A stretch of 64,000 nt of DNA from Candidatus Omnitrophota bacterium (GCA_020429915.1 JAGQKV010000001.1:28971-92970); one strand, 5' to 3'; positions 1,030 through 23,446 are shown, counted from the first letter of the stretch. Numbers and translations: made by a program. The notes: generated from the letters alone by a model not told the origin.

Positions 1030-1890
1030 ATGAACCGCTATGTCCGAAAATTCATCTCCTATCTTGAGGTCGAAAAAAACTACTCTCCGCACACCATCCA
1101 AAACTACACCTCGGACTTGGAGTACTTTCTGAATTTTATCGAGAAGACGCCGGTGACCAAGGTCGACTATCAGCTGTTGCGCAAGTATCTCGCGCATCTG
1201 CGCGGCCGGCAGTTGAAGCCCCGGTCCCTGGCCCGCAAGCTATCCACCCTGCGCAGCTTCTACAAATTCCTTTTTCGCGAGGGGATCATCGATGACAGTC
1301 CTGCCGCGCTCTTGATGTCGCCCAAACTCGACAAGACCCTGCCCAAATTTTTAAGCGAGGACGAAATGGTCGCCCTGATTGAGGCCCCGGACCTGAAAAG
1401 TGTGTCGGGCAAACGGGACCGGGCGATCCTGGAGACGCTGTATTCGACTGGCATCCGGGTCAGTGAGCTGGTCGGCATGAATATCGCTGACGTCGATTTG
1501 ATCGGCAATATCGCGCGGGTGCGCGGCAAGGGCAAGAAAGAACGGCTGGTCCCGATCGGCTCGAAAGCCGTGACCGCGATCAGGAAATATCTGGACGAAC
1601 GGCCAGACCGGCCCGAGGCCATGTTTCTCAACAAAAACAGGACGCGTTTGACCCGGCGCGGGGTGTACGATATCGCCGACAAATACATCAGACAAACCAG
1701 TACCAGCAAGGGAATTTCGCCGCACGTGCTGCGGCATTCGTTTGCCACGCATCTGCTCGATCACGGCGCGGACCTGCGCTCGGTTCAGGAATTGCTCGGG
1801 CATGTCAACCTCTCGACAACGCAGATCTATACCCACGTGTCCACGGATAAACTCAAGAAGATCTACGACAAGGCCCATCCCCGGGCATGA
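1030..1890 (+). CDS. Tyrosine site-specific recombinase, XerC/XerD family
   Basis: 286 aa. N-terminal SAM-like core-binding region, then a C-terminal catalytic region with HVLRHSFATHLL...LLGH...TQIYTHV (R-H-R-Y catalytic residues). I cannot separate XerC from XerD by eye. Confidence 0.85.
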   Translation: MNRYVRKFISYLEVEKNYSPHTIQNYTSDLEYFLNFIEKTPVTKVDYQLLRKYLAHLRGRQLKPRSLARKLSTLRSFYKFLFREGIIDDSPAALLMSPKLDKTLPKFLSEDEMVALIEAPDLKSVSGKRDRAILETLYSTGIRVSELVGMNIADVDLIGNIARVRGKGKKERLVPIGSKAVTAIRKYLDERPDRPEAMFLNKNRTRLTRRGVYDIADKYIRQTSTSKGISPHVLRHSFATHLLDHGADLRSVQELLGHVNLSTTQIYTHVSTDKLKKIYDKAHPRA

Positions 1891-1894
1891 CGCC

Positions 1895-3178
1895 ATGGCG
1901 ATCCTGTTTGACATCATATACGCGGTTCTCTTTGTCCTTTATTTGCCGGTTCTGAAGTGGAAGGGCAAGCTTCACGCCGGTTATCCGATGCGTATGGGAA
2001 GGATTCCGCCGGATATCCAACAAGCCTTAGCCACGAAACCGAATATCTGGATTCATGCCGTCAGTGTCGGGGAGGTCCTGGCAGTGGCCGATTTGATCGA
2101 CAAGCTGATGCAACGCTTCCCCGATAAGCGCGTCGTATGTTCGGTCGTGACCGATACCGGCTATGCGGTCGCCCGGGAGAAGCTGCCCGGAGGGGTACAG
2201 GTGATCTACGCGCCGCTCGATTTCAGTTGGGTCGTTCGCCGATTCGTGAAGCTCATCCGGCCGGAGATCTATATCTTTGCCGAGACTGAGATCTGGCCGA
2301 ACCTGTTCGATCACCTGCACGCCGCCGGCGTGCCGATGATCCAGGTCAACGGCCGTATCTCCGACAAATCCTTCGGCGGATACAAACGGTTGCGTCCGGT
2401 GACGCGGCGGGTCCTCGGCAAGGTCGACCGCTTTCTGATGCAGTCGCAAACGGACGCCGACCGGATCTGCGAACTCGGCGCGCACCCAGCTGCAGTCCGG
2501 GTCCCCGGCAATCTGAAATTCGACAGTTTGCCCGAGGCAGTGGTGCCCGATCCGGCCCGTTTCGGTCTGGGAACAACGGACCAACCGCTGATCGCCGGCA
2601 GCACCCATCCGGGCGAGGAGGAAATACTGCTAGACGTGTTCGCAGTGTTGAAGCAGGCTCATCCGGCGGCCCGGCTGATTATCTGCCCGCGGCATGTGAC
2701 GCGTTGCGACGAAGTCCTGAGTCTGATCCGCGGCCGGGATATGACCGGCGTCGCGTTGAGCGCGGCACAGGAAACCGGTGCTCCTGCGGACGCGGTCATT
2801 GTGGTCGATACCATGGGGCAGCTGCGGGATTTGTACAGCGTGGCGCGGGTAGTCTTCGTCGGCAAGACGTTCACGGTCCAGGGCGGTCAAAACATGATCG
2901 AACCCGGCTTCTTCGGCAAGCCGGTGATCGTCGGACCGTACACGCAAAACTTCAAAGACGTGATGACGATTTTTAAACGCGAGAAGGCCATCGTGCAAGT
3001 GAATGATCCGGACGAATTGCGAGAGGAACTGCTGGATATCTGGGACAATGCTATCCGCCGTGAGTCGCTCGGGATGGCGGCCAGGCGGGTGGTGGAGAAG
3101 TTTCAGGGGGCCACCGAGAAGACATTACTCGAGATCGAAACATTGGGACCGGGACGCCAGGATGCGGCGATACATTAG
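1895..3178 (+). CDS. waaA: 3-deoxy-D-manno-octulosonic acid (Kdo) transferase WaaA/KdtA
   Basis: In-frame ATG at 1895 just after the xer stop. Protein MAILFDIIYAVLFVLYLPVLKWKGK...IWIHAVSVGEV...GGQNMIEPG matches the KdtA N- and C-terminal motifs. The track ORF starts earlier at 1742 and overlaps xer, which is unlikely to be real. Confidence 0.85.
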   Translation: MAILFDIIYAVLFVLYLPVLKWKGKLHAGYPMRMGRIPPDIQQALATKPNIWIHAVSVGEVLAVADLIDKLMQRFPDKRVVCSVVTDTGYAVAREKLPGGVQVIYAPLDFSWVVRRFVKLIRPEIYIFAETEIWPNLFDHLHAAGVPMIQVNGRISDKSFGGYKRLRPVTRRVLGKVDRFLMQSQTDADRICELGAHPAAVRVPGNLKFDSLPEAVVPDPARFGLGTTDQPLIAGSTHPGEEEILLDVFAVLKQAHPAARLIICPRHVTRCDEVLSLIRGRDMTGVALSAAQETGAPADAVIVVDTMGQLRDLYSVARVVFVGKTFTVQGGQNMIEPGFFGKPVIVGPYTQNFKDVMTIFKREKAIVQVNDPDELREELLDIWDNAIRRESLGMAARRVVEKFQGATEKTLLEIETLGPGRQDAAIH

Positions 3179-4217
3179 CGCACTCATGCATGACGAGCGC
3201 CGGGGAACCGTCGACGCGCTGCCCAAGGCATTGTTATGGATGTTGTCCGTCGTATACGGACTGTTCATGCGCGGACGCAACTTGGCGTATGATCGCGGAT
3301 GGAAACCATCCTCCGATGTCGGAGTTCCGGTCATCAGCGTCGGAAATATCACGATGGGTGGGGCGGGCAAGACCCCGCTGGTTGTTTATATTGCGCGTGA
3401 AATCGTCCGGGCCGGCGGCAAACCCGTGGTCTTGCTGCGCGGTTACATGCAACAGGATCGTTCCGCCACGGACAGCGACGAGGCCGAAGTGATCCGCCGC
3501 AAGGTCCCGGGCATCGACGTTATCACCGGGGCCGACCGGGTGGGTCGTGCCCGCGATTATTTGAAGCAGGCGCAGTGTGACGTTTTTATCCTTGATGACG
3601 CATTTCAACACCGTAAAATTAAACGACGGCTGGATATCGTCGTCATCGACGCCCTGAATCCGTTCGGTAACGGGCAGGTTATCCCCCGCGGGATTCTGCG
3701 GGAACCGCTTGGCGGTTTGGGCCGAGCCGATCTCACCGTGGTGACCCGGACGGACCTAAATGCCGGGGCGCTGCCGGAGATTGAAAATACACTGAAGACG
3801 CGGGGCAGGCAATCTTCGTCCATTCACTCGGTGCACCGGGCGGAGGGGTTCGTCAATCTAAAGAGCGGCGAAAGACGGGACGTCAACGGTTTTGCCGGCA
3901 ATCCGGCCGTCGCTTTTTGCGGCTTGGGGAATCCGGACGGTTTTCGCCGTACGTTGGAAGCCCTGCGCGTGGATTTACGGCACTTCGTGGCTTTTGAGGA
4001 TCATCATCGCTATACGGCGGGAGATTTTCAAATGTTGACGTCGCAGGCGGCCGAGAGCGACACGAAAGTGCTATTAACGACGTTGAAGGATGCGGTCAAG
4101 TTGACGGCGATCAAGGGGTTGCCGCTCGACCGCATTTACTATCTTGATATCGGGATTGAGATAACCCATGGGAAAGACGAACTCACAGATCGAATCCATA
4201 GCGTACTACGCGGTTAG
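3162..4217 (+). CDS. lpxK: Tetraacyldisaccharide 4'-kinase LpxK
   Basis: ATG at 3162 overlaps the waaA stop by 17 nt. ISVGNITMGGAGKTP is the LpxK P-loop signature. About 351 aa. Confidence 0.85.
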   Translation: MRRYISALMHDERRGTVDALPKALLWMLSVVYGLFMRGRNLAYDRGWKPSSDVGVPVISVGNITMGGAGKTPLVVYIAREIVRAGGKPVVLLRGYMQQDRSATDSDEAEVIRRKVPGIDVITGADRVGRARDYLKQAQCDVFILDDAFQHRKIKRRLDIVVIDALNPFGNGQVIPRGILREPLGGLGRADLTVVTRTDLNAGALPEIENTLKTRGRQSSSIHSVHRAEGFVNLKSGERRDVNGFAGNPAVAFCGLGNPDGFRRTLEALRVDLRHFVAFEDHHRYTAGDFQMLTSQAAESDTKVLLTTLKDAVKLTAIKGLPLDRIYYLDIGIEITHGKDELTDRIHSVLRG

Positions 4218-6150
4218 AGCAATCGCCGGCATCCTGCGCCGGCTGCCGGTGAATGCCGCGCTGGCATTCGGCCGGGGAGTGGGCTGGTTCATGTTTTACG
4301 TGGACCGCCGTCACAAGGAACTGGCCTTTGCCAATGTCACCAAGGCCCTCGGCCATGAAAAGTCTCCCCGTGAGATTCGCGCTATTGTTAAGAAATTGTA
4401 CAAGAACATCGGCATGAATATCGTCGAGCTGTTCCGGCTCAAAGACATGACCCAAGAGCTCTACGACAAGTACGTGGATTGCGAAGGCCCGCCCCATATC
4501 GACCAGGCCGTGAAGGAAGGTCGCGGCTGTATCCTGCTGGCCATGCACATGGGCAACTGGGAACTGGCCAATATCTACTGCGCGCTGCACGGTATTCCGT
4601 ACAAGGTCCTGGTCCGCCCGCAACCCGGATGGGACCGTTTGAACGACCTGCTCAATTCGTACCGTTCCTGCAACGGGGCCGTCGTCGTTAAACGGGGGGG
4701 CGGGACGCGGGAACTGATCAAGAGTCTGAAAGACAATCAGGTGATTGCCATGGTCGTCGATCAAGGCGGACGCCAGGGCGTGCGTGTTCCGTTCTTCGGC
4801 CGCAAGGCCTCAATGTCGTCGGGTGCCATCCGCATTGCGATGAAAATGAACGTGCCGGTGCTGGTGTCGATCATCACGCGCAAGAACGGCGCTTATCATC
4901 AGGTCAAGGCCTTTCCCAAACTGGACCTCGTCGACACCGGGAATCCCGAGCAGGATGTCGAGGCCAATCTCAAACAAGCCATCAAAATATTCGAGGATTA
5001 TGTCCGGCAGAATCCCGATGAGTACGTGTGGACATACAAGGTCTGGAAGTATTCCGACCAGAGCAATATCACCATCCTCTATGACGGACGGACCGGTCAT
5101 CTGCGTCAGTCGCAGGCCGTGGCCAAATGGACACAGAAGGCGCTGGAGGAGCGCGGCATCGCATCCGAGGTCAACGTCTGTGAAATCCGTTACCGCAGCA
5201 AAAAGCACCGGACCTGGTTCGCCGTCCTGTATCAGGCGTTCGGCTGGTTTTTACGTTACGGCCGGCACGACATTTTGCAGCGTTTTATCACCGAGGAAAG
5301 TTATCGTTCCTTGAACCGGGTTCGCAGTGACTATATCATTTCCACCGGCACCGGGGTGGCCCCGCTGAATCATCTTCTGAGCCGCAATCTGCAGGCCAAG
5401 AGCGTGGCGATCCTCAAACCCGGACTGATGCACACCAACAAGTTCGACCTGGTCTTTCTTCCGCAGCACGACGTCGTTTCGGACGAGTACATCAGTGAGA
5501 AGGTGCGGATCGTACGCGGCGCGCCTAATCTGGTCACACCGGAGTACCTCGAAGAGCACAAGCAGCGGTTGTTGAAGAGATTTTCCCACTTGAAAACCAA
5601 GGTCCGTTTTAAGATCGGGCTGCTGATCGGCGGCGACGCCAAAGGGATGTACGTGGGCGAGGACCAGGTGCGGCTGATTTTGCGGCAGATCAAGGAGGCG
5701 CAAAAGGCCATTGATGCCGACCTGCTGGTCACCTCATCGCGGCGGACCCCCGCCTTTATTGATCAGCTCCTGGTTCGTCAACTGCGCAAGGACCCGCGGT
5801 GTCCGCTGCTGATTCTGCCCAACCGGGAGGACGTGCCGGAGGCGATCGGCGGGATCCTCGCGCTGTGCGATTTGCTGATCGTGTCCGGTGATAGCATCTC
5901 GATGGTCTCGGAAGCGGCCAGCTCCGGCAAAAAGACGATTGTCTTCTTTCCCAAGACCCAGGAAGTCCTGCTCCACGCAGGCAACAAGCACTGGAAGTTC
6001 ATCAATAAACTCAATGATCAAGGATACGTGCTCGCATCGCAGGCCAAGGATGTCGGGCGTTCGATTTTTGACATCGTCAAACAGAAGATCAATACCCGGC
6101 CCCTGGATGACAACAAGACCATTCTGAAGGCCGTCCGTAAAATTATTTAA
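4168..6150 (+). CDS. Fusion protein: N-terminal lipid A biosynthesis (Kdo2-lipid IVA) acyltransferase LpxL/HtrB-family domain + C-terminal ELM1/DUF1022-like domain
   Basis: 660 aa continuous ORF. Residues 1-~300 resemble LpxL/LpxM acyltransferases (N-terminal TM segment, RRHKELAFANVTKAL...; HMGNWE, the HX4D-type acyltransferase motif). Residues ~310-660 carry ITILYDGRTGHLRQSQAV..., which resembles the bacterial 'mitochondrial fission ELM1' family (DGKPGHxNQ motif). Family assignment of the C-terminal half is from memory, not a search. Confidence 0.7.
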   Translation: MGKTNSQIESIAYYAVRAIAGILRRLPVNAALAFGRGVGWFMFYVDRRHKELAFANVTKALGHEKSPREIRAIVKKLYKNIGMNIVELFRLKDMTQELYDKYVDCEGPPHIDQAVKEGRGCILLAMHMGNWELANIYCALHGIPYKVLVRPQPGWDRLNDLLNSYRSCNGAVVVKRGGGTRELIKSLKDNQVIAMVVDQGGRQGVRVPFFGRKASMSSGAIRIAMKMNVPVLVSIITRKNGAYHQVKAFPKLDLVDTGNPEQDVEANLKQAIKIFEDYVRQNPDEYVWTYKVWKYSDQSNITILYDGRTGHLRQSQAVAKWTQKALEERGIASEVNVCEIRYRSKKHRTWFAVLYQAFGWFLRYGRHDILQRFITEESYRSLNRVRSDYIISTGTGVAPLNHLLSRNLQAKSVAILKPGLMHTNKFDLVFLPQHDVVSDEYISEKVRIVRGAPNLVTPEYLEEHKQRLLKRFSHLKTKVRFKIGLLIGGDAKGMYVGEDQVRLILRQIKEAQKAIDADLLVTSSRRTPAFIDQLLVRQLRKDPRCPLLILPNREDVPEAIGGILALCDLLIVSGDSISMVSEAASSGKKTIVFFPKTQEVLLHAGNKHWKFINKLNDQGYVLASQAKDVGRSIFDIVKQKINTRPLDDNKTILKAVRKII

Positions 6151-6165
6151 CTGAGATATCAGGGC

Positions 6166-8259
6166 ATGCACATTTTACAGATTCTCCCCGAGCTGAACGT
6201 CGGGGGTGTCGAAACCGGAACCGTTGATTTTGCCAATTATTTGGTCGAAAACGGACACAAGTCGGTGGTGATCTCCAACGGCGGTCGCCTCGTCGATAAA
6301 CTGGAAGAACAGGGATCGACGCATTACACACTGCCCGTACATAAGAAATCATTGATGACGGCGTGGCGTATGATCGAGAAAGTACGCGAGATTATTCATG
6401 CCGAAAAGATTCAGATCGTCCACGCCCGTTCACGGGTGCCGGCCTGGATCGCTTACTTCGCCTGCCGCAAAACCAGGGCGATGTACATCACCACCTGCCA
6501 CGGATTTTACCGGCATCCATGGTACAGCCAGGTGATGGGGTGGTCGAAGCTCGTCATCGTGCCCAGCGAGGCCATCGCCCGGCACATGATCGATACTTAT
6601 CATGTCCCGGCCGAACGCATCCGATGTATTCCGCGCAGCGTGGACATGACGCGCTTCGAAGGGATCAAGCGACGCAAGCGCAAAGACGGCAGCTTCGTGG
6701 TCACGATCCTCGGCCGGCTGACGCCGTTGAAGGGGCATCCGTATTTTCTGCAGGCGATGGCGCGTGTGATGCGTCAGGTCCCGCATGTGAAGATTTGGGT
6801 GATCGGCGACGCGCCGCAAAAGAAGCCGGAGTATCGCGAGGAATTGGAGAAGCAGGCCGCGCGACTGGGGCTGCGCAACAATATCGAGTTTTTGGGCAAC
6901 CGGGCTGACGTCCCGCAGCTGTTGGCGCAAACCGACGTGCTGTGCTTTGCCTCGACCGAACCGGAATCCTTCGGACGGGCCATTGTGGAGGCCCAGGCGG
7001 CGCATGTCCCGGTGGTCGCGACCAAGGTCGGAGGCGTACTCGATATCATCGAAGACGGTGATACCGGATACTTGGTCCTGCCCAAAGATGCGGCCGCGAT
7101 GGCCGACAAGGTGCTGCATATCTACCAGCATCCGAAGGAAGCGAGGCGTATTTCCGAAGCCGCCTATACCAAGGTTAAGGAAAATTACACCATCGACCAC
7201 ATGGCAGGGCGTACGCTGAAGGTTTATAAAGAAATGCTGCGTATGGTCAATATTCTGGTCCTGAAGATCAGCGCGATCGGGGACGTGGTCCTGGTCACCG
7301 CCTCGCTTAAGGCCATACGCCAGAAGTATCCGCGGGCCAAGATTTATTGTCTGGTCGGGACCGAGTCGCGCAAGATTCTCAGCAACTGTCCCTATCTCGA
7401 CGGGATCATCGTTTACGATCACCGGGGCAAGGAGCGCGGCTACTGGCCGCTATGGAAGCTGTCCCGGAAACTGCGCGGCTACCGTTTCGACATGGCGATT
7501 GATTTTCAGAACAACCGCAAGAGCCACCTGCTCGCATTCTTGAGTATGGCGCGGGAGACATACGGATTCGATAACGGCAAATGGTCGGGCTTGCTGACCG
7601 ATCCTGTCCCCAACGACAGGCCGGACCTCCCGGCCGTGGCGCATCAGTTTCAGGTGTTGCAGGAACTTAAGATCAACTATGACCCGGATCAGCGTCTGGA
7701 GCTGTGGCCGACCAAACAGGACCGCCAGTACGTAGACGCGTTCTTCGATGAGGAATGGCTGGGTAACGCGCGCAATATCGTCGGTATCAATATCGCGGCA
7801 TCCCCGAAGTGGGGGACCAAGAACTGGCCGCCTGAGTATATCGCGGAATTGTGCGACAAGCTGGCCGCCAAGAATGTCCGGGTGATCCTGACCGGATCGG
7901 ACCGCGACCGGGAACTGGCCAAGTATATTCAGGAAAATGCCAAGTCCAAACCCACGGTGAGCGCGGGTAAGACCGATATCCTGCAACTGGCGGCGCTGAT
8001 CGAACGCTGCCAGGTGTACATCACCCCGGATTCGGCGCCGCTGCACGTTGCCGCCGCCGTCCACACGCCGGTCATCGCGTTGTTCGGTCCGACCGATTCC
8101 CGGCGGCACGTTCCGCCAGCCGATCAGCTGGCGGTTTACCAGCGCAAAGTGCCCTGCGCTCCGTGTTATTCGGGGCAATGCAAAATCCGGACGCACGATT
8201 GTATGCGCGAGATCAAACCGGAACACATTTTCAAGAAGGTGATGTCGCTGATATCTTGA
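6166..8259 (+). CDS. Fusion glycosyltransferase: N-terminal GT4 (RfaG-like) domain + C-terminal GT9 (ADP-heptose:LPS heptosyltransferase-like) domain
   Basis: 697 aa, no internal stop. N-terminal half: MHILQILPELNVGGVETGTVDF... and EPESFGRAIVEAQAAHVPVVATKVGG (GT4 EX7E region). C-terminal half starts at internal MVNILVLKISAIGDVVLVTASLKAIRQKYP... (the GT9 ILVIRLSAIGD signature) and ends with YITPDSAPLHVAAAVHTPVIALFGPTD. Confidence 0.75.
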   Translation: MHILQILPELNVGGVETGTVDFANYLVENGHKSVVISNGGRLVDKLEEQGSTHYTLPVHKKSLMTAWRMIEKVREIIHAEKIQIVHARSRVPAWIAYFACRKTRAMYITTCHGFYRHPWYSQVMGWSKLVIVPSEAIARHMIDTYHVPAERIRCIPRSVDMTRFEGIKRRKRKDGSFVVTILGRLTPLKGHPYFLQAMARVMRQVPHVKIWVIGDAPQKKPEYREELEKQAARLGLRNNIEFLGNRADVPQLLAQTDVLCFASTEPESFGRAIVEAQAAHVPVVATKVGGVLDIIEDGDTGYLVLPKDAAAMADKVLHIYQHPKEARRISEAAYTKVKENYTIDHMAGRTLKVYKEMLRMVNILVLKISAIGDVVLVTASLKAIRQKYPRAKIYCLVGTESRKILSNCPYLDGIIVYDHRGKERGYWPLWKLSRKLRGYRFDMAIDFQNNRKSHLLAFLSMARETYGFDNGKWSGLLTDPVPNDRPDLPAVAHQFQVLQELKINYDPDQRLELWPTKQDRQYVDAFFDEEWLGNARNIVGINIAASPKWGTKNWPPEYIAELCDKLAAKNVRVILTGSDRDRELAKYIQENAKSKPTVSAGKTDILQLAALIERCQVYITPDSAPLHVAAAVHTPVIALFGPTDSRRHVPPADQLAVYQRKVPCAPCYSGQCKIRTHDCMREIKPEHIFKKVMSLIS

Positions 8260-8260
8260 T

Positions 8261-9352
8261 ATGAACGTGATGCTTTTAACAACTCATTTGAATGCCGGGG
8301 GGATCACCAGTTATCTGCAGACCCTTTGCCGTGGACTGACTGCCGACGGGCACGGCGTGTGGTTGGTTTCGTCGGGCGGTGAGCGCGCAGGCGATTTTCA
8401 AGCCATGGGCTGCCGGCTGGTAACGCGGGATATCAAGACCAAATCCGAGGTCAGTCCGAAAATCTATGCTGTCCTGGGTGAGCTCAAAGACATCATTCTG
8501 CGGGAGAAAATCGAGGTGTTGCACGCACACACCCGGATCACCCAGGTGATGGCGGCCTGGTTACGGCGCATGAGCGGCCGGCCCAACATAGCGACCTGTC
8601 ATGGATTCTTTAAGACGCGCTGGAACCGGAGATTGTTTCCGTGCTGGGGTATCCGGACGATTGCGATCAGCGAACCCGTGGTACGGCATTTGACCGGGGA
8701 CTTTCGTTGCCCGCCGGAGACGGTCAAGTTGATCCCCAACGGCATAGACCTGGAACGTTTTTTTGTGGCGGCGGACGAAGATCGCACGGCCTGTCGGGAA
8801 CGCCACGGCCTGGGTGACGAACCGGTCGTCGGAATTATCGCGCGATTATCCGACGTGAAGGGGATCGATATCCTGATCGAGACAATCCCCCGGGTCAAAG
8901 AACGGATTCCTGAGGTAAAACTTGTCATCATGGGGGAGGGCCGCGAGGAACAGGCCTTGAAAGATCTGGTTCGCCAACGGCACCTGGAAGGCACGGTCCG
9001 CTTTTTTTCGGGCGTGGATGACATGGCGCTGTGCCTGAATATGTTTGACGTGTTCGTTATGCCGTCGCGGCAGGAGGGATTGGGGCTGTCGGTGCTGGAA
9101 GCCCAAGCGTGCGGATTGTGCGTGGTTGCCTCGCGAGTCGGCGGTTTGGTCTCCATCATCGAGGACGGAGAGACGGGATTTCTCGTCGACCCGGAGGACC
9201 CCGCAGTTCTGGCGGCGCGCATCACGGCCGTGTTGACCGACGATTTCACGCGCCGCAAGGTCGGCCGTCAGGCCCGCGCGCGGGTGGGCGAACATCACGC
9301 GGCGTCACGCATGGTGGCCGAGACCGTTAAGGTGTATCGGGAGGTAATATAA
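8261..9352 (+). CDS. Glycosyltransferase family 4 (LPS core/sugar transferase)
   Basis: 363 aa. MNVMLLTTHLNAGGITSYLQTL...; C-terminal PSRQEGLGLSVLEAQACGLCVVASRVGG has the GT4 E..E motif. Confidence 0.8.
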   Translation: MNVMLLTTHLNAGGITSYLQTLCRGLTADGHGVWLVSSGGERAGDFQAMGCRLVTRDIKTKSEVSPKIYAVLGELKDIILREKIEVLHAHTRITQVMAAWLRRMSGRPNIATCHGFFKTRWNRRLFPCWGIRTIAISEPVVRHLTGDFRCPPETVKLIPNGIDLERFFVAADEDRTACRERHGLGDEPVVGIIARLSDVKGIDILIETIPRVKERIPEVKLVIMGEGREEQALKDLVRQRHLEGTVRFFSGVDDMALCLNMFDVFVMPSRQEGLGLSVLEAQACGLCVVASRVGGLVSIIEDGETGFLVDPEDPAVLAARITAVLTDDFTRRKVGRQARARVGEHHAASRMVAETVKVYREVI

Positions 9353-9355
9353 ACG

Positions 9356-10378
9356 ATGACCGGCATCCTGGTGGTCAATGTTAACTGGCTGGGCGACGTG
9401 ATCTTCTCGGCACCGGTCTTTCGCGCGTTGCGGGACGCGCAGCCCGATGCGCATATCGCCTGCCTGGCTGTGCCGCGGGTCGTGGAGATCCTGCGGTGCA
9501 TACCCGAAATCGACGAGGTAATTCCGTACGATGAATCCGGCGCGGACAAAGGCGTGGGGGCCAAGCTGCGCCTGGTGCGCCGGATCAAACGGCAGGGTTT
9601 CGACCGGGCCTACTTTTTGTCGCGTTCGCTGTCGCGCGCGGTCCTTATCCGGCTGGCCGGTATTCCGCAGCGTTTCGGCTATGAGAATAAAGGGCGGGGC
9701 CGCCTGTTGACTGGCGTGACTCCGCCGCCGACGGAACAGTTGCATCGCAGCGATTACTATCTCAGGGTGATCGAGGATGCCGGCGTACCCGTCCGCGACC
9801 GCACGACCCGCCTGCAACCGCCGGACGAATCGGCCGAAAAAGTGACGCGGCTGCTGACAGCGCACGGCCTGAGCGCCGGCGGAACCCGGATTGTCGTCAA
9901 TCCCGGCGGAAATTGGGATCTGAAGCGGTGGCCGTGCTTGTCATTTGCCCGGCTGATCGACAAGCTTGATGAACTGCCCGGAGCACGGATTATCATAACC
10001 GGTGCGCCGGACGATCGTGAGCTGGCCGCCGAGATCTTGAGCATGGCCCGGCGCCCGCAGGCGGTCACCGATTTGACCGGACAATTGACCCTGACCGAGC
10101 TGATCGCGTTTTTGCGCCATATCGATATTTTTGTCTCGGCCGACTCCGGACCGTTGCATATTGCGGGCAGCGTCGGGACGACGGCCGTCGGCATCTTCGG
10201 ACCAACGCGGCCGGAATGGACCGGTCCGCGGGGGAGCGCCGAGGCGCACATTCTGCAGCGGGATGTGGGCTGTAACCGGGAACCCTGTTACTATCTAGAG
10301 TGTCCCGACAACTTTTGTATGCGGGCCGTCACGGTGGACGATGTTTTTTCGCGTATCCGACAAATCCAAAGTGCGTAA
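9356..10378 (+). CDS. ADP-heptose:LPS heptosyltransferase family (GT9)
   Basis: 340 aa. MTGILVVNVNWLGDVIFSAPVFRALRDA...; C-terminal VSADSGPLHIAGSVGTTAVGIFGPT is typical of WaaC/WaaF/WaaQ-type GT9 enzymes. Confidence 0.8.
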   Translation: MTGILVVNVNWLGDVIFSAPVFRALRDAQPDAHIACLAVPRVVEILRCIPEIDEVIPYDESGADKGVGAKLRLVRRIKRQGFDRAYFLSRSLSRAVLIRLAGIPQRFGYENKGRGRLLTGVTPPPTEQLHRSDYYLRVIEDAGVPVRDRTTRLQPPDESAEKVTRLLTAHGLSAGGTRIVVNPGGNWDLKRWPCLSFARLIDKLDELPGARIIITGAPDDRELAAEILSMARRPQAVTDLTGQLTLTELIAFLRHIDIFVSADSGPLHIAGSVGTTAVGIFGPTRPEWTGPRGSAEAHILQRDVGCNREPCYYLECPDNFCMRAVTVDDVFSRIRQIQSA

Positions 10379-11333
10379 GATCCTGGTGATCTCCCTGTCG
10401 AATATCGGGGATGTGGTGTTGACCCTGCCGGTGGTCGATATTCTGCTGCGGGATTTTCCTAACAGTACGGTATCCGTGGTGGTCGGTCCCAAGGCCGAGT
10501 CGTTGCTGCGCGACAATCCGGTGCTGGCTGAGGTGATCGTACTGGACAAACACCAGTCGCGCTCGGCGCTGTGGTCCTGGGTCGCGGAATTGCGCCGGCG
10601 AAAATTCGACATGATCATCGATTTGCGAAACTCGATGATTCCGTTGATGCTGATGGCGCGTTACATGACGCCACCGGAGATGCGGCGGGTCAAGGGACAA
10701 CACATGCGGCGCAAGCACCTCGCGCGCCTGCGTACCGTCCATCACTTCGCAGACGACAACGCGCCGTGCCGGTGCCTCACCGCGACCGCGTCCGACGCGG
10801 GAGCTGTGGATGCACTTCTGGGTGATTCCGGTCCTTTCGTGGTGATGGCGCCCGGTTCGGCGGATCAGGCCAAGCGCTGGTCGCCGTCCGGTTTCGCGGC
10901 AGTAGCCAAATATGTGAAAAGCGAGTATGATCTAGGGATTGTTTTTCTCGGTGACCGTCACGATCGGGAGATCGCGGCGCGCATCACTGCCGCGTTGGAT
11001 GTCCCGGTCCTCGACCTGTGTGGCCGGACAACGCTGAGTCAATCCGCCGAAATCGTCCGGCGGGCGGCTGCGGCGGTCGTTAACGACAGCGCGGTCCTGC
11101 ACTTGGCCGGGTACCACAATATTCCCACGGTTGCCTTGTTCGGTTATACCGACCCGGTGAGGTACGGACCGTGGAGCGAACAGCGCGTCATTGTGACCCC
11201 GGAAGGCACGCCGTTACCGAAGGACAGCAGCACCGAGCGAAAGGTGGCGTATATCGAAAGCATTCCCCCGGAAGCGGTGATTAGCCGGCTGTGTTACACC
11301 GACGGGAGGATGCGACTGGTGAGCGACGAATGA
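10341..11333 (+). CDS. ADP-heptose:LPS heptosyltransferase family (GT9), second copy
   Basis: RKILVISLSNIGDVVLTLPVVDIL...AVVNDSAVLHLAGYHNIPTVALFGYTDP. The true start may be GTG at 10371 (GTGCGTAA overlap with the upstream stop); the ATG at 10341 overlaps the upstream gene by 38 nt. Confidence 0.75.
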   Translation: MFFRVSDKSKVRKILVISLSNIGDVVLTLPVVDILLRDFPNSTVSVVVGPKAESLLRDNPVLAEVIVLDKHQSRSALWSWVAELRRRKFDMIIDLRNSMIPLMLMARYMTPPEMRRVKGQHMRRKHLARLRTVHHFADDNAPCRCLTATASDAGAVDALLGDSGPFVVMAPGSADQAKRWSPSGFAAVAKYVKSEYDLGIVFLGDRHDREIAARITAALDVPVLDLCGRTTLSQSAEIVRRAAAAVVNDSAVLHLAGYHNIPTVALFGYTDPVRYGPWSEQRVIVTPEGTPLPKDSSTERKVAYIESIPPEAVISRLCYTDGRMRLVSDE

Positions 11334-12373
11334 AGACTTATAAAAACATCCTGGTTGTACGCACCGACCGGATCGGGGACGTGATTCTGACCACGCCGGC
11401 GATCAAGGCCCTTAAGGATAAATTTCCCCAAGCCCGGTTGACGGTGTTGGTGGCCCCGCTGACATACGATTTGTTGCACGGCCTGAAGTGGATCGACGAG
11501 ATTATGGTGGATGACCGGGCCGGTTTGAACAAGGGCATGATGGGATTCTTTCATCTGATGCATTCCCTGCGTCACAAGAAGTTTGATCTGGCCGTCGTCT
11601 TCCATACCAAACGCCGGACGAATTTGCTCTGTTTTCTGGCGGGCATTCCCAACCGGCTGGGATACCGCAACGGCAAGTACGGCTTTTTGCTCAACAGGCC
11701 CATGGACGACGACCGGCATCACGGACAAAAGCACGAGGCCGCCTATTGCATAGACCTGCTTGCCGCGGTGGGCGTCAAGGCCGGACCGCCCGAATTGGCG
11801 GTGGCTGTCCAGGAGTCGTCCGAACAATGGGTGCTGGATTTTCTTAAAGGCAAGGGCGTGGAGCCCGCGCACCATCTCTACATCATACATCCGGCGGCCA
11901 GTGATCCGGCCAAGCAGTGGCCCAAGGAGAACTTCGCCGAATTGATTGATGCCATCGCCAAACGGGACGCCAACGCGCGTTTTCTGATCGTCGGCGGCAA
12001 CGAGAACCAGCCCACCGCCCGGAATATCCAAAATAAAACCAATACCGAGGTCCTGGACACCTCGGGCCAGCTGACCATCCGCCAGCTGGTATCCGTGATC
12101 AAGCACTGCCATATGCTGATCTCAAATGACTCCGGTCCGGTGCATATCGCTGCCGCGCTTAAAACCCCGGTGGTCTCGATCTTCACCCGAAACCAGCCCG
12201 GGATCAACCCGCAGCGATGGGAGCCCTTGGGGGAGAAAGCCCGGGTCGTCAGCGTGGCTCCGGACGCCGGTTCCGACTTCCGCAAAGCCCGCCCGTATGA
12301 TCCTAACTGTATGAAACCTATACCAGTTAGGGACGTCGTTGCCGCGGTTGACGCGCTTTTGAAACTGTGTTAG
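11330..12373 (+). CDS. ADP-heptose:LPS heptosyltransferase family (GT9), third copy
   Basis: ATG at 11330 overlaps the previous stop (ATGA). MKTYKNILVVRTDRIGDVILTTPAIKALKDKFP...ISNDSGPVHIAAALKTPVVSIFT. Confidence 0.8.
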   Translation: MKTYKNILVVRTDRIGDVILTTPAIKALKDKFPQARLTVLVAPLTYDLLHGLKWIDEIMVDDRAGLNKGMMGFFHLMHSLRHKKFDLAVVFHTKRRTNLLCFLAGIPNRLGYRNGKYGFLLNRPMDDDRHHGQKHEAAYCIDLLAAVGVKAGPPELAVAVQESSEQWVLDFLKGKGVEPAHHLYIIHPAASDPAKQWPKENFAELIDAIAKRDANARFLIVGGNENQPTARNIQNKTNTEVLDTSGQLTIRQLVSVIKHCHMLISNDSGPVHIAAALKTPVVSIFTRNQPGINPQRWEPLGEKARVVSVAPDAGSDFRKARPYDPNCMKPIPVRDVVAAVDALLKLC

Positions 12374-12434
12374 AATCGAACGTTTTTCCACTACACTATC
12401 ATACGCCATATCAACATTTTAGCTTCCCGGATGC

Positions 12435-13469
12435 ATGAGAAATTACCGCTCTGTCATATCCAAGTTCTCTAAGCAGTCTGTATTGGTGATCGGAGACCTG
12501 ATTCTCGATCAGTATATCCGGGGGAGTGTTTCGCGCATTTCGCCTGAAGCCCCGGTACCTGTTGTCCTGCAACAAGATTCGTTCTATACGCCGGGAGGTG
12601 CCGCCAATGTGGCGCATAATCTTAGCGGACTCGGAGCGCAGGTCACCCTGATGGGGATCATCGGCAAGGACGACGAAGGCCAGATCCTGGTGAAGGATTT
12701 GAAGAAACGCAAAATCGACACCAAGGGCATCCTGGTGGACGCTCTCCGGCCGACGGTGACCAAGACCCGGGTGATCGCCCAGCATCAGCAGGTGGTCCGG
12801 ATCGACAAGGAGGACATGGACACGCCGCTCGCCGCGGGCGCCATTAAGAAACTGCACGGATTTCTCGACCGGCACCTTAAGGACTATGACGCGGTAATCC
12901 TGTCCGACTACGGTAAAGGACTGCTGACGGCGCAAACGGTGCAGTATGCGGTCACGCTGGCCCGGCAGCACAAGGTGATCATCACGGTCGATCCCAAGGT
13001 CGAACACTTTGACTATTACCGCCGGGTCACGGCCATCACGCCGAACCTCAAGGAGACCGAAAACGCGATTCGCAGCATCAAGATCACCTCGCCGGAGTTG
13101 TCGCAAAAGCTCGGCGTGAACTCGGACAAACTTCGCACGGATGAAGAGATCGACTGTGCCGGTCGGGAGCTGCTCAAGTGCCTTGAACTCGAATCCCTGC
13201 TGGTGACTTTGAGCGAACGCGGCATGCGGCTATTTGAGAAAGGCCGCCGTCCGGTATCGATTAAGACCAAGGCCATCGACGTCTTCGATGTCACCGGCGC
13301 GGGCGACGCGGTCATCTCCGTGTTCACGCTGGCCCTGGCCTGCGGGGCAAGCAAGCCGCTCGCCGCTGATTTGGCAAACGTGGGCGCGGGAGTGGTCGTC
13401 GGAAAGCTGGGGGCCGTAGCCGTCACTAAAAGGGAATTGCTCGACGCCCTCAGAGAGGGAGAAAAATGA
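12435..13469 (+). CDS. hldA: D-glycero-beta-D-manno-heptose-7-phosphate kinase (HldE kinase domain only, HldA-like; pfkB/ribokinase family)
   Basis: 344 aa. LVIGDLILDQYIRGSVSRISPEAPVPVV...GGAANVAHNLSGLGA...DVTGAGDAVISVF (the pfkB GAGD motif). It ends where kdsB starts; there is no C-terminal adenylyltransferase domain. Confidence 0.8.
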   Translation: MRNYRSVISKFSKQSVLVIGDLILDQYIRGSVSRISPEAPVPVVLQQDSFYTPGGAANVAHNLSGLGAQVTLMGIIGKDDEGQILVKDLKKRKIDTKGILVDALRPTVTKTRVIAQHQQVVRIDKEDMDTPLAAGAIKKLHGFLDRHLKDYDAVILSDYGKGLLTAQTVQYAVTLARQHKVIITVDPKVEHFDYYRRVTAITPNLKETENAIRSIKITSPELSQKLGVNSDKLRTDEEIDCAGRELLKCLELESLLVTLSERGMRLFEKGRRPVSIKTKAIDVFDVTGAGDAVISVFTLALACGASKPLAADLANVGAGVVVGKLGAVAVTKRELLDALREGEK

Positions 13470-14200
13470 ACGTGATCGGCGTCATTCCGGCGCGTTATGA
13501 CTCGGTACGTTTTCCCGGCAAGGCCTTGGCCGAGATCGACGGCCGCCCGATGATTCAACACGTTTACGAACGGGCCAGCCGGAGCCTGAGCCTGACGGAA
13601 GTGGTCGTCGCCTGTGACGATGAACGGATCAGGGACGCCGCGGCGGCGGCCGGGGCCCGGGTGATCATGACCCGATCCGATCACGCCTGCGGGACAGACC
13701 GCATCGTTGAGGCGGTGCAGGGTATCGAGGCCGACATCATCGTTAATATTCAGGGGGATGAGCCGCTGATCCAGCCGGATATCATCGATACGCTGGTGGC
13801 CTGTCTCGGCGAGGACTCACAGCAGGTCATGGCCACGGTGGTCAAGAAGATCGAGGACCCGCAGGAGATCGCCGATCCGAATGTGGTTAAGGTCGTCCTG
13901 GACAAGCAGAACTTCGCGATTTATTTTTCGCGCTCCCCGATACCGTATAACCGGGCGGGCACACAACTCACTTATCACAAGCATCTGGGAATTTACGCCT
14001 ATACCAAGCCCTTCCTGCTGATTTATGCCGCCCTGCCGAAAACCGCGCTGGAGCAGGCCGAGTGTCTGGAACAACTGCGCGCCATCGAGCACGGATTCAA
14101 GATCAAGACCGTCGCCACGCAGCATGAGAGCATCGGCGTGGACACGCCTGAAGATTTGGCAAAGGTGACGGCACTCATTAACGAAAGCAGGGGCACATGA
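13466..14200 (+). CDS. kdsB: 3-deoxy-manno-octulosonate cytidylyltransferase (CMP-Kdo synthetase)
   Basis: MNVIGVIPARYDSVRFPGKALAEIDGRPMIQHVYERA...NIQGDEPLI, classic KdsB motifs. ATGA overlap with the upstream gene. Confidence 0.9.
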   Translation: MNVIGVIPARYDSVRFPGKALAEIDGRPMIQHVYERASRSLSLTEVVVACDDERIRDAAAAAGARVIMTRSDHACGTDRIVEAVQGIEADIIVNIQGDEPLIQPDIIDTLVACLGEDSQQVMATVVKKIEDPQEIADPNVVKVVLDKQNFAIYFSRSPIPYNRAGTQLTYHKHLGIYAYTKPFLLIYAALPKTALEQAECLEQLRAIEHGFKIKTVATQHESIGVDTPEDLAKVTALINESRGT

Positions 14201-15018
14201 AAAGCATTCGCATCGGCGACATCCAGATTGGCGGGAAGAATCCGCTGGTCCTGATCGCGGGACCGTGCGTGGTTGAAGACCGCGCAACCACTCTCAAGAT
14301 AGCCGCAGGCCTGAAACGCATCACGGACAAGCTCAAGGTCCCGTTGATTTTCAAGGCCAGCTATGACAAGGCGAACCGCACGTCGCTGAACTCCTACCGC
14401 GGTCCGGGCATCACCGCCGGTCTCGAGGTGTTGGAAGAGGTCAAATACAAATACGGTGTTCCGGTGATCAGTGACGTGCATAATATCGGCGAGGTGGACC
14501 AGGCCGCCCGGGTCTTGGATGTTCTGCAAATTCCGGCCTTTCTGTGCCGGCAGACCGATCTGCTGGTCTGCGCAGGAAGCACGGGCAAAGTGGTCAATAT
14601 CAAAAAGGGTCAGTTCCTGGCCCCGGAAAACATGCGCCAGGCCGCGGCGAAGGTGGCCAGCACCGGCAACAAAAGGATTTTGCTGACCGAGCGCGGCGCC
14701 AGTTTCGGTTATAATAACCTCGTCACCGATTTCCGAGCCTTGGCCATTTTGAGGGAATGCGGATATCCGGTCGTGCTCGACGCTTCACACAGCGTTCAGC
14801 AACCCGGGGGGTTGGGGCATGCCTCGGGCGGTCGACGCGAATTCATTCCGCTGCTGGCGCGCTGCGGTGTGGCGGCCGGCTGCGACGGAATCTTTATGGA
14901 AGTGCACACCGATCCGACAAAGGCCCTGTCGGACGGGCCGAATATGCTCCCGCTGCGACAGCTCGAAAAACTGCTCGCGGACTTGGTGGCGATCGACCGG
15001 ATCGTCAGAAAGAAGTGA
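14197..15018 (+). CDS. kdsA: 2-dehydro-3-deoxyphosphooctonate aldolase (Kdo8P synthase)
   Basis: LVLIAGPCVVEDRATTLKIAAGLK...FKASYDKANRTS...VVLDASHSVQQPGG, typical of KdsA/DAHP-synthase-I family Kdo8P synthase. Confidence 0.9.
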   Translation: MKSIRIGDIQIGGKNPLVLIAGPCVVEDRATTLKIAAGLKRITDKLKVPLIFKASYDKANRTSLNSYRGPGITAGLEVLEEVKYKYGVPVISDVHNIGEVDQAARVLDVLQIPAFLCRQTDLLVCAGSTGKVVNIKKGQFLAPENMRQAAAKVASTGNKRILLTERGASFGYNNLVTDFRALAILRECGYPVVLDASHSVQQPGGLGHASGGRREFIPLLARCGVAAGCDGIFMEVHTDPTKALSDGPNMLPLRQLEKLLADLVAIDRIVRKK

Positions 15019-15019
15019 T

Positions 15020-15979
15020 ATGTCCTTAAAGAAAGCACAGGAAGTCATCAAGATCGAGGCCCGCGAACTGCAGGCTCTGGCCGGCCGGATCAACCGCAAT
15101 TTCAGCCGTGCGGTCAACATGATGGCCGAATGCCGGGGAAGGGTCGTGGTGACCGGCATGGGCAAGGCGGGATTGGTCGGCAGCAAGATTGCCGCGACCC
15201 TGTCGTCGACCGGAACGCCGAGCATCTCGATGCACAGCGCCGACGCCGTTCACGGAGACTTGGGTCAGGTCACACAGCACGATGTCCTGATTCTGATTTC
15301 AAAAAGCGGGGAGACCGACGAGACCAAACGTCTGCTTCCGTTGCTGAAGAAGATCGGCTGCAAGACGATCGCGATGACCGGCAATGTGAAATCCAGCCTC
15401 GCCAAATACAGCGATGTGACGCTGGATGTCTCGGTTAAGCAGGAAGGCTGCCCGCTGGGGCTGGCCCCGATGGCGTCCACGACGGCTATGCTGGCCTGCG
15501 GCGACGCCTTGGCCGCGTGTCTGATCATCAAGAAGGGCTTTAAGCGCGAGGACTTCGCTTTTTATCATCCGGCCGGAAGCCTGGGGCGGCAGCTTTTGCT
15601 CAAGGTGGAAGATATTATGCGTAAGGGGGCGGCTTTTCCTAAGGTGCGACAGACGACACCGGTCAAGCAGGTGTTGCTGGCCATCACCAAGGCGCGCTGC
15701 GGTTCCGCCTGTGTGACCGACCAGTATGGCGTGCTAGTGGGCATCTTTACCGATGGGGACTTGCGCCGGCACATCGAATCCGACCCTGACCTGCTCAACC
15801 TGAAGGTCAGCAAAGTGATGACCAAAAAGCCGGTCACCATCAATCAGGATAAGCTGGCCGCCGAGGCGCTGGCGCTGCTGAAGACACGTAAAATCGACGA
15901 AGTTCCGGTTGTGGACGATAGTCACAAACCGGTCGGACTGTTGGATATCCAGGATCTCCTGAAGGTAGGTTTGCTGTGA
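15020..15979 (+). CDS. kdsD: Arabinose-5-phosphate isomerase KdsD/GutQ (SIS + tandem CBS domains)
   Basis: ATG at 15020, 2 nt after the kdsA stop. VVVTGMGKAGLVGSKIAATLSSTGTPS...ILISKSGETDE (SIS domain), then C-terminal CBS pairs. The track ORF start at 14819 is an upstream in-frame artefact. Confidence 0.85.
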   Translation: MSLKKAQEVIKIEARELQALAGRINRNFSRAVNMMAECRGRVVVTGMGKAGLVGSKIAATLSSTGTPSISMHSADAVHGDLGQVTQHDVLILISKSGETDETKRLLPLLKKIGCKTIAMTGNVKSSLAKYSDVTLDVSVKQEGCPLGLAPMASTTAMLACGDALAACLIIKKGFKREDFAFYHPAGSLGRQLLLKVEDIMRKGAAFPKVRQTTPVKQVLLAITKARCGSACVTDQYGVLVGIFTDGDLRRHIESDPDLLNLKVSKVMTKKPVTINQDKLAAEALALLKTRKIDEVPVVDDSHKPVGLLDIQDLLKVGLL

Positions 15980-16524
15980 ATAAAACGTTGAAAGATAAGT
16001 TTAATCGGGTTAAACTGCTAGTCCTCGATGTGGACGGTATCCTTACCGACGGCCGCATTATCGTCAATGATCAGGGACGCGAAACCAAGCACTTTGACGT
16101 GCAGGACGGTTTCGGGATTGTCCTGTTCCAGCGCGCCGGGTTTAAAGTGGCCATTATTTCGGCCCGCGGGTCGGATGCGGTCAAGGCCAGGACGATGGAT
16201 CTGAAGATCAGCAAAGTCTATCTCAACGCGCGCAACAAGCTCAAGATCTACCGGCAGCTCGCCAAGAGTTCCGGCGTCGACGACCAGGAGGTGTGTTTTA
16301 TGGGAGACGATCTGCCCGATCTCGGGGTGGCCCAGACCGTCGGCACGGTATGTACCGTTCCCTCCGCGCGCGAGGAAATCCGGAAAGAAGCCGACTATGT
16401 TACGTCCTGTTCCGCCGGACGCGGAGCGGTTCGCGAAGTGATTGAATTGATCCTGAAATCCAAGGGGATGTGGGAAGACGTGGTAAAGGAGTACGCGAGT
16501 GATCAACAAGTCCGTAATCATTAG
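15976..16524 (+). CDS. kdsC: 3-deoxy-D-manno-octulosonate 8-phosphate phosphatase KdsC (HAD superfamily)
   Basis: GTG start overlapping the kdsD stop (GTGA). KLLVLDVDGILTDGRII...IISARGSDAVKARTMDLKI...CFMGDDLPDL; HAD motifs I-III in KdsC arrangement. Confidence 0.85.
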   Translation: MNKTLKDKFNRVKLLVLDVDGILTDGRIIVNDQGRETKHFDVQDGFGIVLFQRAGFKVAIISARGSDAVKARTMDLKISKVYLNARNKLKIYRQLAKSSGVDDQEVCFMGDDLPDLGVAQTVGTVCTVPSAREEIRKEADYVTSCSAGRGAVREVIELILKSKGMWEDVVKEYASDQQVRNH

Positions 16525-17353
16525 TTTGTTGCTGGCCGTGACCGTCACGCTTCCCGTCGCCGCGCAGCAGGACGAACAACGCTTTCAAGGGTTCAACCTG
16601 CAGGGTTACAACGACAGCGGGGAAAAGGCCTGGGACGTCGTGGGCGAGACCGCCGATGTGGTGGACGGGACCAAAATCCAGTTGACCAACATCAATGCCA
16701 ACACCTACGGCGAGCGGTCCTTAAATGTCACCGCCGCCGAAGGGCTGGTGGACCAAACATCCGGTTTCATGAAACTGGAGAAGGATGTGGTCATCACCAG
16801 TGACGACGGTTCGCAGATGATGACGGATTACGTCGAGTGGAACCGGGAAGAAGATCTGGTGCAGTCGGATGATGAGGTTTTTATCAAGAACGATAATTTT
16901 ACGGCCACCGGGACCGGACTCGAGGCCCGTCCGGGGATGAAAAGCGCGCAACTGAAGAAGGACGTAACGGTGCGCGTCGATACCAGCCAGCTGGCCCCGG
17001 AATCGTCCGCCGAACCGGTTGAGCCGCCCAAGCAATTTCTCACCGTGACCAGCGACGGACCGATGGTCCTTGATCAGCTCCTCAATAAGGCGCGTTTCGA
17101 GGTGAATGTGGTGGCCGAGCAGGAAGACCAGACGCTCAAGGCGGACGTCATTGAAATTTATTTTAAAGAAGGCATGCGCGATATCATCGAGATGGTCTGC
17201 ATCGGGAATGTAGAAATCACTCAGGGCGACAACAAGACCTATGCGGAAAAGGCGACATACAATGCCGAGGACCAGAAGCTGACATTGTCCGGAAGACCCA
17301 AACTGATACTGGAAACGGGGGGTGAGAATGGCATTGCACCTCTTGGAAACTAA
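16499..17353 (+). CDS. LPS transport periplasmic protein, LptA/LptC (OstA-like) family, N-terminal signal/anchor
   Basis: 284 aa with a hydrophobic N-terminus MINKSVIISLLLAVTVTLPVAAQQ. Sits between kdsC and lptB, where lptC-lptA sit in Proteobacteria. Has beta-jellyroll-like repeat segments (NVTAAEGLVD...; NVEITQGDNKTYAEKATYNAEDQKLTLSG). Only one such gene is present, not two. Confidence 0.6.
   Translation: MINKSVIISLLLAVTVTLPVAAQQDEQRFQGFNLQGYNDSGEKAWDVVGETADVVDGTKIQLTNINANTYGERSLNVTAAEGLVDQTSGFMKLEKDVVITSDDGSQMMTDYVEWNREEDLVQSDDEVFIKNDNFTATGTGLEARPGMKSAQLKKDVTVRVDTSQLAPESSAEPVEPPKQFLTVTSDGPMVLDQLLNKARFEVNVVAEQEDQTLKADVIEIYFKEGMRDIIEMVCIGNVEITQGDNKTYAEKATYNAEDQKLTLSGRPKLILETGGENGIAPLGN

Positions 17354-21350: not shown

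Positions 21351-21354
<4 letters not shown>
19771..21354 (+). CDS. serA: D-3-phosphoglycerate dehydrogenase SerA (with C-terminal ACT domain)
   Basis: MKILVSDKLAPEGLAILE...GRAGVGLDNVDL...LGIIGLGRIGSTVS (NAD-binding GxGxxG). C-terminal ACT-like region NNDKPGMVGAIGATLGEGQVNIAGITLGR. ATG at 19771 chosen; earlier in-frame ATGs at 19705/19741 overlap or abut clpP. Confidence 0.85.

Positions 21355-23446
<2,092 letters not shown>

Follow-up and report, generated by a model that had tools for sequence, protein, structure and literature searches.

A conserved in-frame GT4-GT9 glycosyltransferase fusion in the lipopolysaccharide core locus of Omnitrophota

The assembly of the lipopolysaccharide (LPS) core is understood almost wholly from Proteobacteria, with one enzyme per step. 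A stretch of 64,000 nucleotides from a Candidatus Omnitrophota bacterium (GCA_020429915.1 JAGQKV010000001.1:28971-92970), analysed here at its full length and referred to as the window, raises the question of whether two core glycosyltransferases can be joined in one polypeptide: the initial annotation, made from the sequence alone, had proposed that a gene at positions 6166-8259 fuses a GT4 glycosyltransferase to a heptosyltransferase-like GT9 domain in one frame. Here we find that the fusion is conserved, yet uncharacterised experimentally, and that it probably encodes, as judged from sequence, a genuine, vertically inherited bifunctional LPS inner-core glycosyltransferase in which both halves are active.

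The open reading frame (ORF) at 6166-8259 on the plus strand is a single frame of 697 codons with no internal stop, and the boundary between its two parts, ...KVYKEMLR-MVNILVLKISAIGD..., is read through in one frame, with neither a stop nor a frame change. Residues 1-358 (6166-7239) make up a retaining-type GT-B module that matches the Pfam domains Glyco_transf_4 (PF13439; residues 12-163, 1.4e-30, 107 bits) and Glycos_transf_1 (PF00534; residues 169-335, 1e-39, 136.2 bits). They are followed by a heptosyltransferase-like GT-B module at residues 359-697 (7240-8259, with the Met360 codon at 7243-7245), which matches PF01075 over residues 430-674 (1.3e-41, 143.1 bits versus a gathering cutoff of 22 bits). 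As the match to TIGR02195, the NCBIfam profile of heptosyltransferase II (HepII), spans residues 362-695, the GT9 module is intact from the first strand onwards. An alignment-based AlphaFold2 model of the entire protein, with a predicted local distance difference test score (pLDDT) of 91.6, a predicted template modelling score (pTM) of 0.85 and no segment below a pLDDT of 50, places the last helix of the GT4 module (343-359) directly before the first strand of the GT9 module (362-366), the one passing straight into the other. No solved structure spanning both modules was found in the PDB by sequence search or Foldseek. The fusion combines two known enzyme families in a new arrangement, each module being an ordinary member of its own, and is not a new kind of system.

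A frame of this kind could stem from an assembly or sequencing artefact, in which adjacent GT4 and GT9 genes are merged by a lost stop or a frameshift. Such a history would suit the observations that the junction motif (M-x-ILV-x-K..GD) is precisely where standalone GT9 proteins start, that a Met lies at the boundary in the window, and that unfused GT9 relatives starting exactly at the junction exist in other arrangements (P0190 and P0236). Homology searches nevertheless retrieved 281 distinct, collinear GT4-then-GT9 proteins from independent assemblies (median length 700 aa; ~25-92% identity). Both domain sets were present in 120/120 of the best homologs (57-92% identity, 685-720 aa), which came from NCBI, JGI, ENA and Logan assemblies, and 109 further fusions came from a second search that took a 34%-identical member as its query. 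In an alignment of 76 homologs with 57-92% identity, on which all residue invariance and junction counts reported here are based, the interval from the invariant Y354 to the invariant G372-D373 contained no insertion or deletion and no linker in 76/76 sequences. Since the 281 full-length homologs from independent assemblies confirm the frame, the fusion is genuine; the artefact reading, to which we attach next to no probability, is excluded, and both the proposed gene and its frame continuity hold across related assemblies.

The linker-less junction was kept in representatives down to ~30% identity, with two exceptions that carry inserted linkers together with an NW[LI]GD motif like that of GT9a, one of the standalone GT9 proteins encoded downstream; these two may be independent fusions. 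Among the best 150 representatives in an exhaustive scan of 50%-identity clusters, 47 were full-length and 8 were partial, junction-spanning GT4-GT9 proteins, and the relatives also included tandem GT9-GT9 (17), GT4-GT4 (13) and triple-GT4 (10) proteins. The statement that GT4-GT9 enzymes are uncommon is therefore accurate for characterised enzymes, none being present in the PDB or the literature searched, but not for sequences, given those 47 of the best 150 cluster representatives.

The initial annotation had also left room for independent translation of the GT9 half, such that the full-length protein would be accompanied by a separate GT9 product starting at the internal ATG at 7243. This in-frame ATG, at residue 360, does lie exactly on the domain boundary, yet only 6/76 homologs have Met at residue 360 and 16/76 at residue 361, with Ser and Leu dominating, and no GGAGG-like motif precedes the ATG at 7243. 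The zero-length, indel-free junction moreover implies selection on the covalent link. An internal start is thus not a conserved feature, and we regard the production of two proteins as highly improbable.

We next consider where the fusion occurs and from what it may have arisen. With taxonomic spread inferred from the source names of the homologs, all but three of those bearing an organism name are labelled Candidatus Omnitrophica/Omnitrophota, Ca. Aceula meridiana and Ca. Zapsychrus exili being named examples confirmed as Omnitrophota; the three exceptions are single metagenome-assembled genomes (MAGs) labelled Chlamydiota, Margulisiibacteriota and Planctomycetales. A scan of a species-representative genome collection with the single protein returned 3 loci. 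These names make an Omnitrophota genome the most likely source of the window. The fusion is inherited across this uncultured phylum, probably vertically. The closest unfused GT4 (48% identity) is encoded by a Leptospirillia MAG (L011), where its gene, within an LPS locus, likewise comes right after WaaA-LpxK and is followed by a second GT4 and no GT9. The nearest standalone GT9 genes (L012 and L013) lack a preceding GT4, the order in L013 being GT9-GT9-GT4, and no adjacent GT4/GT9 gene pair that would represent a split ancestor was clear among the loci of these nearest unfused relatives. Two further candidates for standalone GT9s, P0183 and P0208, were set aside: their starts fall ~20 residues before the junction (query residues 340 and 338) and their contigs are short, at 5.3 and 1.9 kb, so that truncation of a fusion gene probably accounts for both.

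The N-terminal module belongs to CAZy family GT4 (PF00534 and PF13439), with hidden Markov models (HMMs) scoring above threshold, an EX7E motif and a Gly-rich N-terminal loop. Its invariant residues among the homologs include G13-G14 of the Gly-rich loop, R184, K189 and the pair E267-x7-E275, and the GT4 half contains 59 invariant columns versus 37 in the GT9 half. The best PDB relative is a Rickettsia GT4 (7mi0; 31% identity, E 4e-56, TM-score 0.84). By Foldseek, for which TM-scores are normalised to target length throughout, this half matched 7mi0, HepE and BshA, with TM-scores of 0.81-0.86 for 7mi0, 4xsp and the best of the 3mbo chains. Orthology of the module to WaaG was rejected, the identity to E. 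coli WaaG being 24.6% over 252 aa (55 bits). No WaaG structure appeared among the best 50 Foldseek matches of the fusion, and no LPS-specific NCBIfam GT4 family scored above its cutoff for the GT4 half.

The C-terminal module likewise belongs to its family, CAZy GT9/PF01075, by HMM match, GT-B fold and residues equivalent to those of WaaC; the HMMs support a GT9 assignment for all four GT9 modules of the cluster, in agreement with the initial annotation. Residues D373, K552, D622, S623 and H627 align to E. coli WaaC D13, K192, D261, T262 and H266 and are invariant in the 76 homologs; we take WaaC D13, K192, D261 and H266 to be the catalytic or ADP-binding residues known from structural work on that enzyme. 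The best structural matches of the GT9 half are a Veillonella GT9 (3tov; TM-score 0.87) and E. coli WaaF (1psw; 0.83). The module scored 162.6 bits against TIGR02195, the WaaF equivalog (cutoff 134.6), a cutoff also passed by two of the standalone GT9s, GT9a and GT9c. It is not a member of the WaaC equivalog TIGR02193, against which it scored 85.6 bits versus a cutoff of 185.3, with 23% identity to E. coli WaaC.

These residues bear on the alternative that only one half is catalytic and that the other serves as a pseudo-glycosyltransferase scaffold or an acceptor-binding module. Degeneration does occur in the family, the Asp of the GT9 GD motif being replaced in the distant members P0131, P0172, P0207 and P0211, so that a catalytic GT9 half is not obligatory in every member of the family. 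Both sets of catalytic motifs are, however, invariant in the window and in all 76 closer homologs, and for the protein studied here we consider a single active half improbable, if less so than a second translation product.

We also observed a four-Cys motif near the C-terminus of the GT9 module (window positions 8155-8202, residues 664-679), of which C664, C667 and C672 are invariant in the 76 homologs and C679 is present in at least 90%. The motif recurs in GT9a (~10235-10290) and in GT9s of Thermodesulfobacteriota, Solibacter and Leptospirillia, is absent from E. coli WaaC, WaaF, WaaQ and WaaU, and may represent a structural metal site.

Downstream of the fusion lie four further plus-strand glycosyltransferase genes: a standalone GT4 (GT4b, 8261-9352; PF00534, 6.5e-44), GT9a (9356-10378; PF01075, 5e-31; TIGR02195, 148.4 bits versus 134.6), GT9b (10341-11333; PF01075, 1e-28, over residues 162-295 only), the most divergent of the GT9s, and GT9c (11330-12373; PF01075, 9e-35; TIGR02195, 137.9 bits). 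Six GT-B glycosyltransferase modules are thus encoded within 6.2 kb, as counted initially and far beyond chance, and further glycosyltransferases lie just upstream, namely WaaA (GT30) at 1742-3178 and an Elm1-like GT-B-clan domain within 4168-6150. The overlaps of 4-38 nt proposed for these genes apply to the last two junctions, at 10378/10341 (38 nt) and, if GT9c starts at the ATG at 11330, at 11333/11330 (4 nt, ATGA), but not to the first two, where the genes are 1 nt (8259/8261) and 3 nt (9352/9356) apart. The longest ORF of GT9c extends from a GTG at 11291; it is the ATG start at 11330 that gives the ATGA overlap, and in alignments with GT9c homologs the first matched position of the long ORF is residue 14-19. 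GT4b is 28% identical to the fused GT4 module and has 1:1 orthologs in L001, L004, L006 and L009. The catalytic residues of the fused GT9 are retained in all three standalone GT9s, including GT9b, which falls below every NCBIfam heptosyltransferase cutoff and keeps its GD, K and DS..H motifs. In L009, a relative labelled Margulisiibacteriota, a polysaccharide deacetylase is inserted after GT4b, and a 677-aa GT9-GT9 protein (5710-7743) unites the orthologs of GT9b and GT9c; fusion between neighbouring core glycosyltransferase genes therefore recurs.

Which heptosyltransferase step each GT9 might perform was addressed by comparison with the E. coli enzymes. The four GT9 modules are 23-31% identical to one another and 20-31% identical to E. 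coli WaaC, WaaF and WaaQ, and BLASTP against these enzymes, run as a test of WaaC, WaaF or WaaQ orthology for each module, gave no clear orthologs. Against NCBIfam profiles, HepII scores rank highest for three of the paralogs, and three modules pass the HepII cutoff while none passes that of heptosyltransferase I (HepI). Outside the fusion family, the best match of the fused GT9 is a Thermodesulfobacteriota GT9 (L002) that leans, as a weak hint, towards HepI; that of GT9a is a WaaF-like gene from Solibacter. A neighbour-joining (NJ) tree of 336 columns with 200 bootstraps recovered the four GT9 orthogroups at 87-100% (GT9a at 93%) and placed all four outside the WaaC (91%) and WaaF (62%) clades. 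The placement called for at the outset thus recovers the orthogroups but puts none of them inside the WaaC or WaaF clade, and we assign no GT9 module to WaaC, WaaF or WaaQ. The four modules are old paralogs. In public annotation, the same two-module protein is called 'lipopolysaccharide heptosyltransferase II' in some entries and 'GT4 family glycosyltransferase PelF' in others; because the four GT9s are ancient paralogs outside the WaaC and WaaF clades, these automatic names are similarity labels, not functions.

Two deductions previously drawn from the number of GT9 domains do not follow. Four GT9s do not exceed the enteric number, as the same number of PF01075 proteins, namely WaaC, WaaF, WaaQ and WaaU, is present in E. 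coli K-12. Nor does their number point to a core rich in 3-deoxy-D-manno-oct-2-ulosonic acid (Kdo), because GT9 enzymes transfer no Kdo, which is transferred by the GT30 enzyme WaaA.

The assignment of the fusion to LPS synthesis draws on its surroundings. The order of genes in the window is TopA, an XerC-like recombinase, WaaA, LpxK, LpxL/Elm1-like, the fusion, GT4, three GT9s, a kinase, KdsB, KdsA, KdsD, KdsC, LptC/LptA, LptB and trigger factor, and the remainder of the window consists of housekeeping genes. The LPS genes, all on the plus strand, comprise the Kdo transferase WaaA (1742-3178; PF04413, 1e-61; NF004388, 6e-97), LpxK (3003-4217; PF02606, 9e-81) and an LpxL fused to the Elm1-like domain (4168-6150; PF03279 at residues 13-294, PF06258 at 310-658) upstream. 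Downstream are a heptose-7-phosphate kinase (HldA, 12435-13469; TIGR02198, 351.3 bits versus a cutoff of 345), the Kdo genes kdsB, kdsA, kdsD and kdsC (13466-16524; PF02348, PF00793, SIS and CBS domains, and a HAD hydrolase, respectively), and a fused LptC-LptA ORF followed by LptB (16499-18056; PF06835 and PF03968 in a 284-aa ORF, then an ABC ATPase). These genes bear out the reading of the region as an LPS core cluster. Gene order is kept in L004 (a 1.17-Mb contig) and L006 (a 255-kb contig) at 57-65% identity, and the glycosyltransferase block is also kept in L001. All five glycosyltransferase genes have one-to-one orthologs in L001, L004 and L006, the fusion being the best conserved of the block (56-68% identity versus 39-55% for the others). 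As related genomes share the synteny of the whole neighbourhood, which runs from WaaA/LpxK past the Kdo genes to LptB, the cluster is the core LPS locus of the phylum Omnitrophota and not a mobile island.

This embedding has to be weighed against the possibility that the fusion acts on a non-LPS glycoconjugate, through a Pel-like exopolysaccharide or protein heptosylation, or that its GT9 transfers a sugar other than heptose. NCBI's annotation pipeline, PGAP, calls some orthologs PelF, and the fusion scores 102.6 bits against the PelF profile NF038011 (cutoff 100); the distant member P0169 sits outside any LPS cluster, and CAZy GT9 also holds non-heptose LPS transferases. The PelF match nevertheless covers only profile positions 277-489 of 489, for which reason we reject PelF as the identity of the fusion, and no pel genes were found within the window. 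The fusion is instead consistently embedded among lipid A, Kdo and Lpt genes and adjoined by the heptose-7-phosphate kinase. We therefore hold a non-LPS or non-heptose role to be unlikely, though it carries somewhat more weight than a protein with one inactive half.

On the preferred reading, a bifunctional inner-core enzyme, the GT9 module would be an inverting transferase that most likely uses ADP-heptose, and the GT4 module a retaining transferase with a nucleoside diphosphate (NDP)-sugar donor. Heptose, as ADP-L-glycero-D-manno-heptose, would be the most likely GT9 donor, a choice supported indirectly by family membership and by the adjoining PfkB-type heptose-7-phosphate kinase. A GT-B enzyme ends in a helix that packs back against its N-terminal, acceptor-binding domain; because the link from the C-terminal helix of GT4 into the first strand of GT9 has zero length, the two acceptor-binding domains would be adjacent, set side by side by the linker-less join. 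Both sites would act on one and the same membrane-anchored Kdo-lipid A intermediate, in steps that follow directly on each other or lie close together, adding a heptose (by the inverting GT9) and an alpha-linked sugar (by the retaining GT4); further extension of the core would fall to the downstream GT4 and the three GT9s. We infer the donor sugars, the steps catalysed, the side-by-side geometry and any hand-over of substrate between the sites. A bolder version, which we offer as a speculation with the odds clearly against it, is that a rigid body of four Rossmann domains locks a heptosyltransferase to a hexosyltransferase and passes the nascent Kdo-lipid A between sites without release; the LpxL-Elm1-like and LptC-LptA fusions would fit such an integrated, assembly-line LPS pathway in very small cells, in which the first steps of the inner core would not be WaaC then WaaF.

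Several observations weigh against a bifunctional inner-core enzyme. The fused GT9 passes the HepII cutoff, as do two of its paralogs, and falls outside both the WaaC and WaaF clades, so that its step is not assignable. The other ADP-heptose pathway genes (GmhA, GmhB, the adenylyltransferase and HldD) are absent from the window, and literature searches aimed at the fusion or at Omnitrophota LPS returned nothing on a GT4-GT9 architecture. The proposed side-by-side geometry would derive only from GT-B topology and the pTM of the model, and the loss of the GD Asp in distant members, described above, counts on the same side.

Additional features of the locus were noted. The LpxL-Elm1-like fusion (4168-6150) is conserved in L004 and L006, and its Elm1-like half has no relative in a PDB sequence search. 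To our knowledge, PF06258 (Mito_fiss_Elm1) is a GT-B-clan family without an established bacterial function. In A. baumannii outer-core loci, PF06258 is reported as GtrOC1/14/19/22 (PMC10327509). The LptC (residues 29-159) and LptA/LptD_N-type (190-269) domains share the plus-strand ORF at 16499-17353, directly 5' of LptB, and L004 and L006 possess the same two-domain gene. The longest-ORF starts of WaaA (1742-3178), LpxK (3003-4217) and KdsD (14819-15979) overlap upstream genes by 149-215 nt, and these ORFs are 46-68 residues longer than the L004/L006 orthologs (420, 352-358 and 318-319 aa, respectively); the true starts of all three probably lie downstream of the longest-ORF starts, that listed for WaaA being a TTG. 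No Rfam or tRNA match was found in the window, and promoter and terminator scans inside the cluster revealed no operon boundary beyond chance. The best sigma-70-like match of the first 19 kb, which scores 10/12 and has an extended TG, lies at 12348-12376 on the plus strand, overlapping the GT9c terminus, 59 nt upstream of the kinase start at 12435; the overall count of promoter-like matches does not exceed that in shuffled sequence. Pfam matched none of three ORFs of 257-359 aa, one on the plus strand (21351-22124) and two on the minus strand (59308-60165 and 61989-63068); the latter two may be spurious in an otherwise plus-strand window.

A conserved GT4-GT9 pair in an uncultured phylum of the PVC group offers a natural case in which to ask whether the glycosyltransferases of consecutive core steps act as one physical unit, and the fusion is a compact structural target, with two GT-B sites and one acceptor. 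While it overturns no concept, it corrects the automatic names 'heptosyltransferase II' and 'PelF', each of which hides a second activity.

Among known systems, the N-terminal half resembles WaaG, PimA, BshA, HepE and 7MI0 in its GT4 Pfam domains and EX7E motif, and the slot of the fusion right after lipid A and Kdo genes is like that of core glycosyltransferases such as WaaG and other GT4s of LPS and glycolipid synthesis. The C-terminal half is comparable to E. coli WaaF, WaaC and WaaQ in its GT-B fold, in its N-terminal GD Asp, Lys and D-S/T...H motif, and in its LPS core context with an adjoining heptose-pathway gene. It differs from them in being only 23-31% identical, in being covalently joined to a GT4, and in carrying a C-x2-C-x4-C-x6-C motif that the E. 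coli GT9 enzymes lack. A parallel to the architecture as a whole, among multi-module polysaccharide glycosyltransferases, is WbdA of E. coli O9a, a tandem GT4-GT4 mannosyltransferase, in which two GT-B modules of a single polypeptide likewise serve one lipid-linked acceptor. Unlike WbdA, the Omnitrophota fusion pairs modules from different CAZy families with opposite stereochemistry, a retaining GT4 and an inverting GT9, and its pathway is that of the core oligosaccharide, not of the O-antigen.

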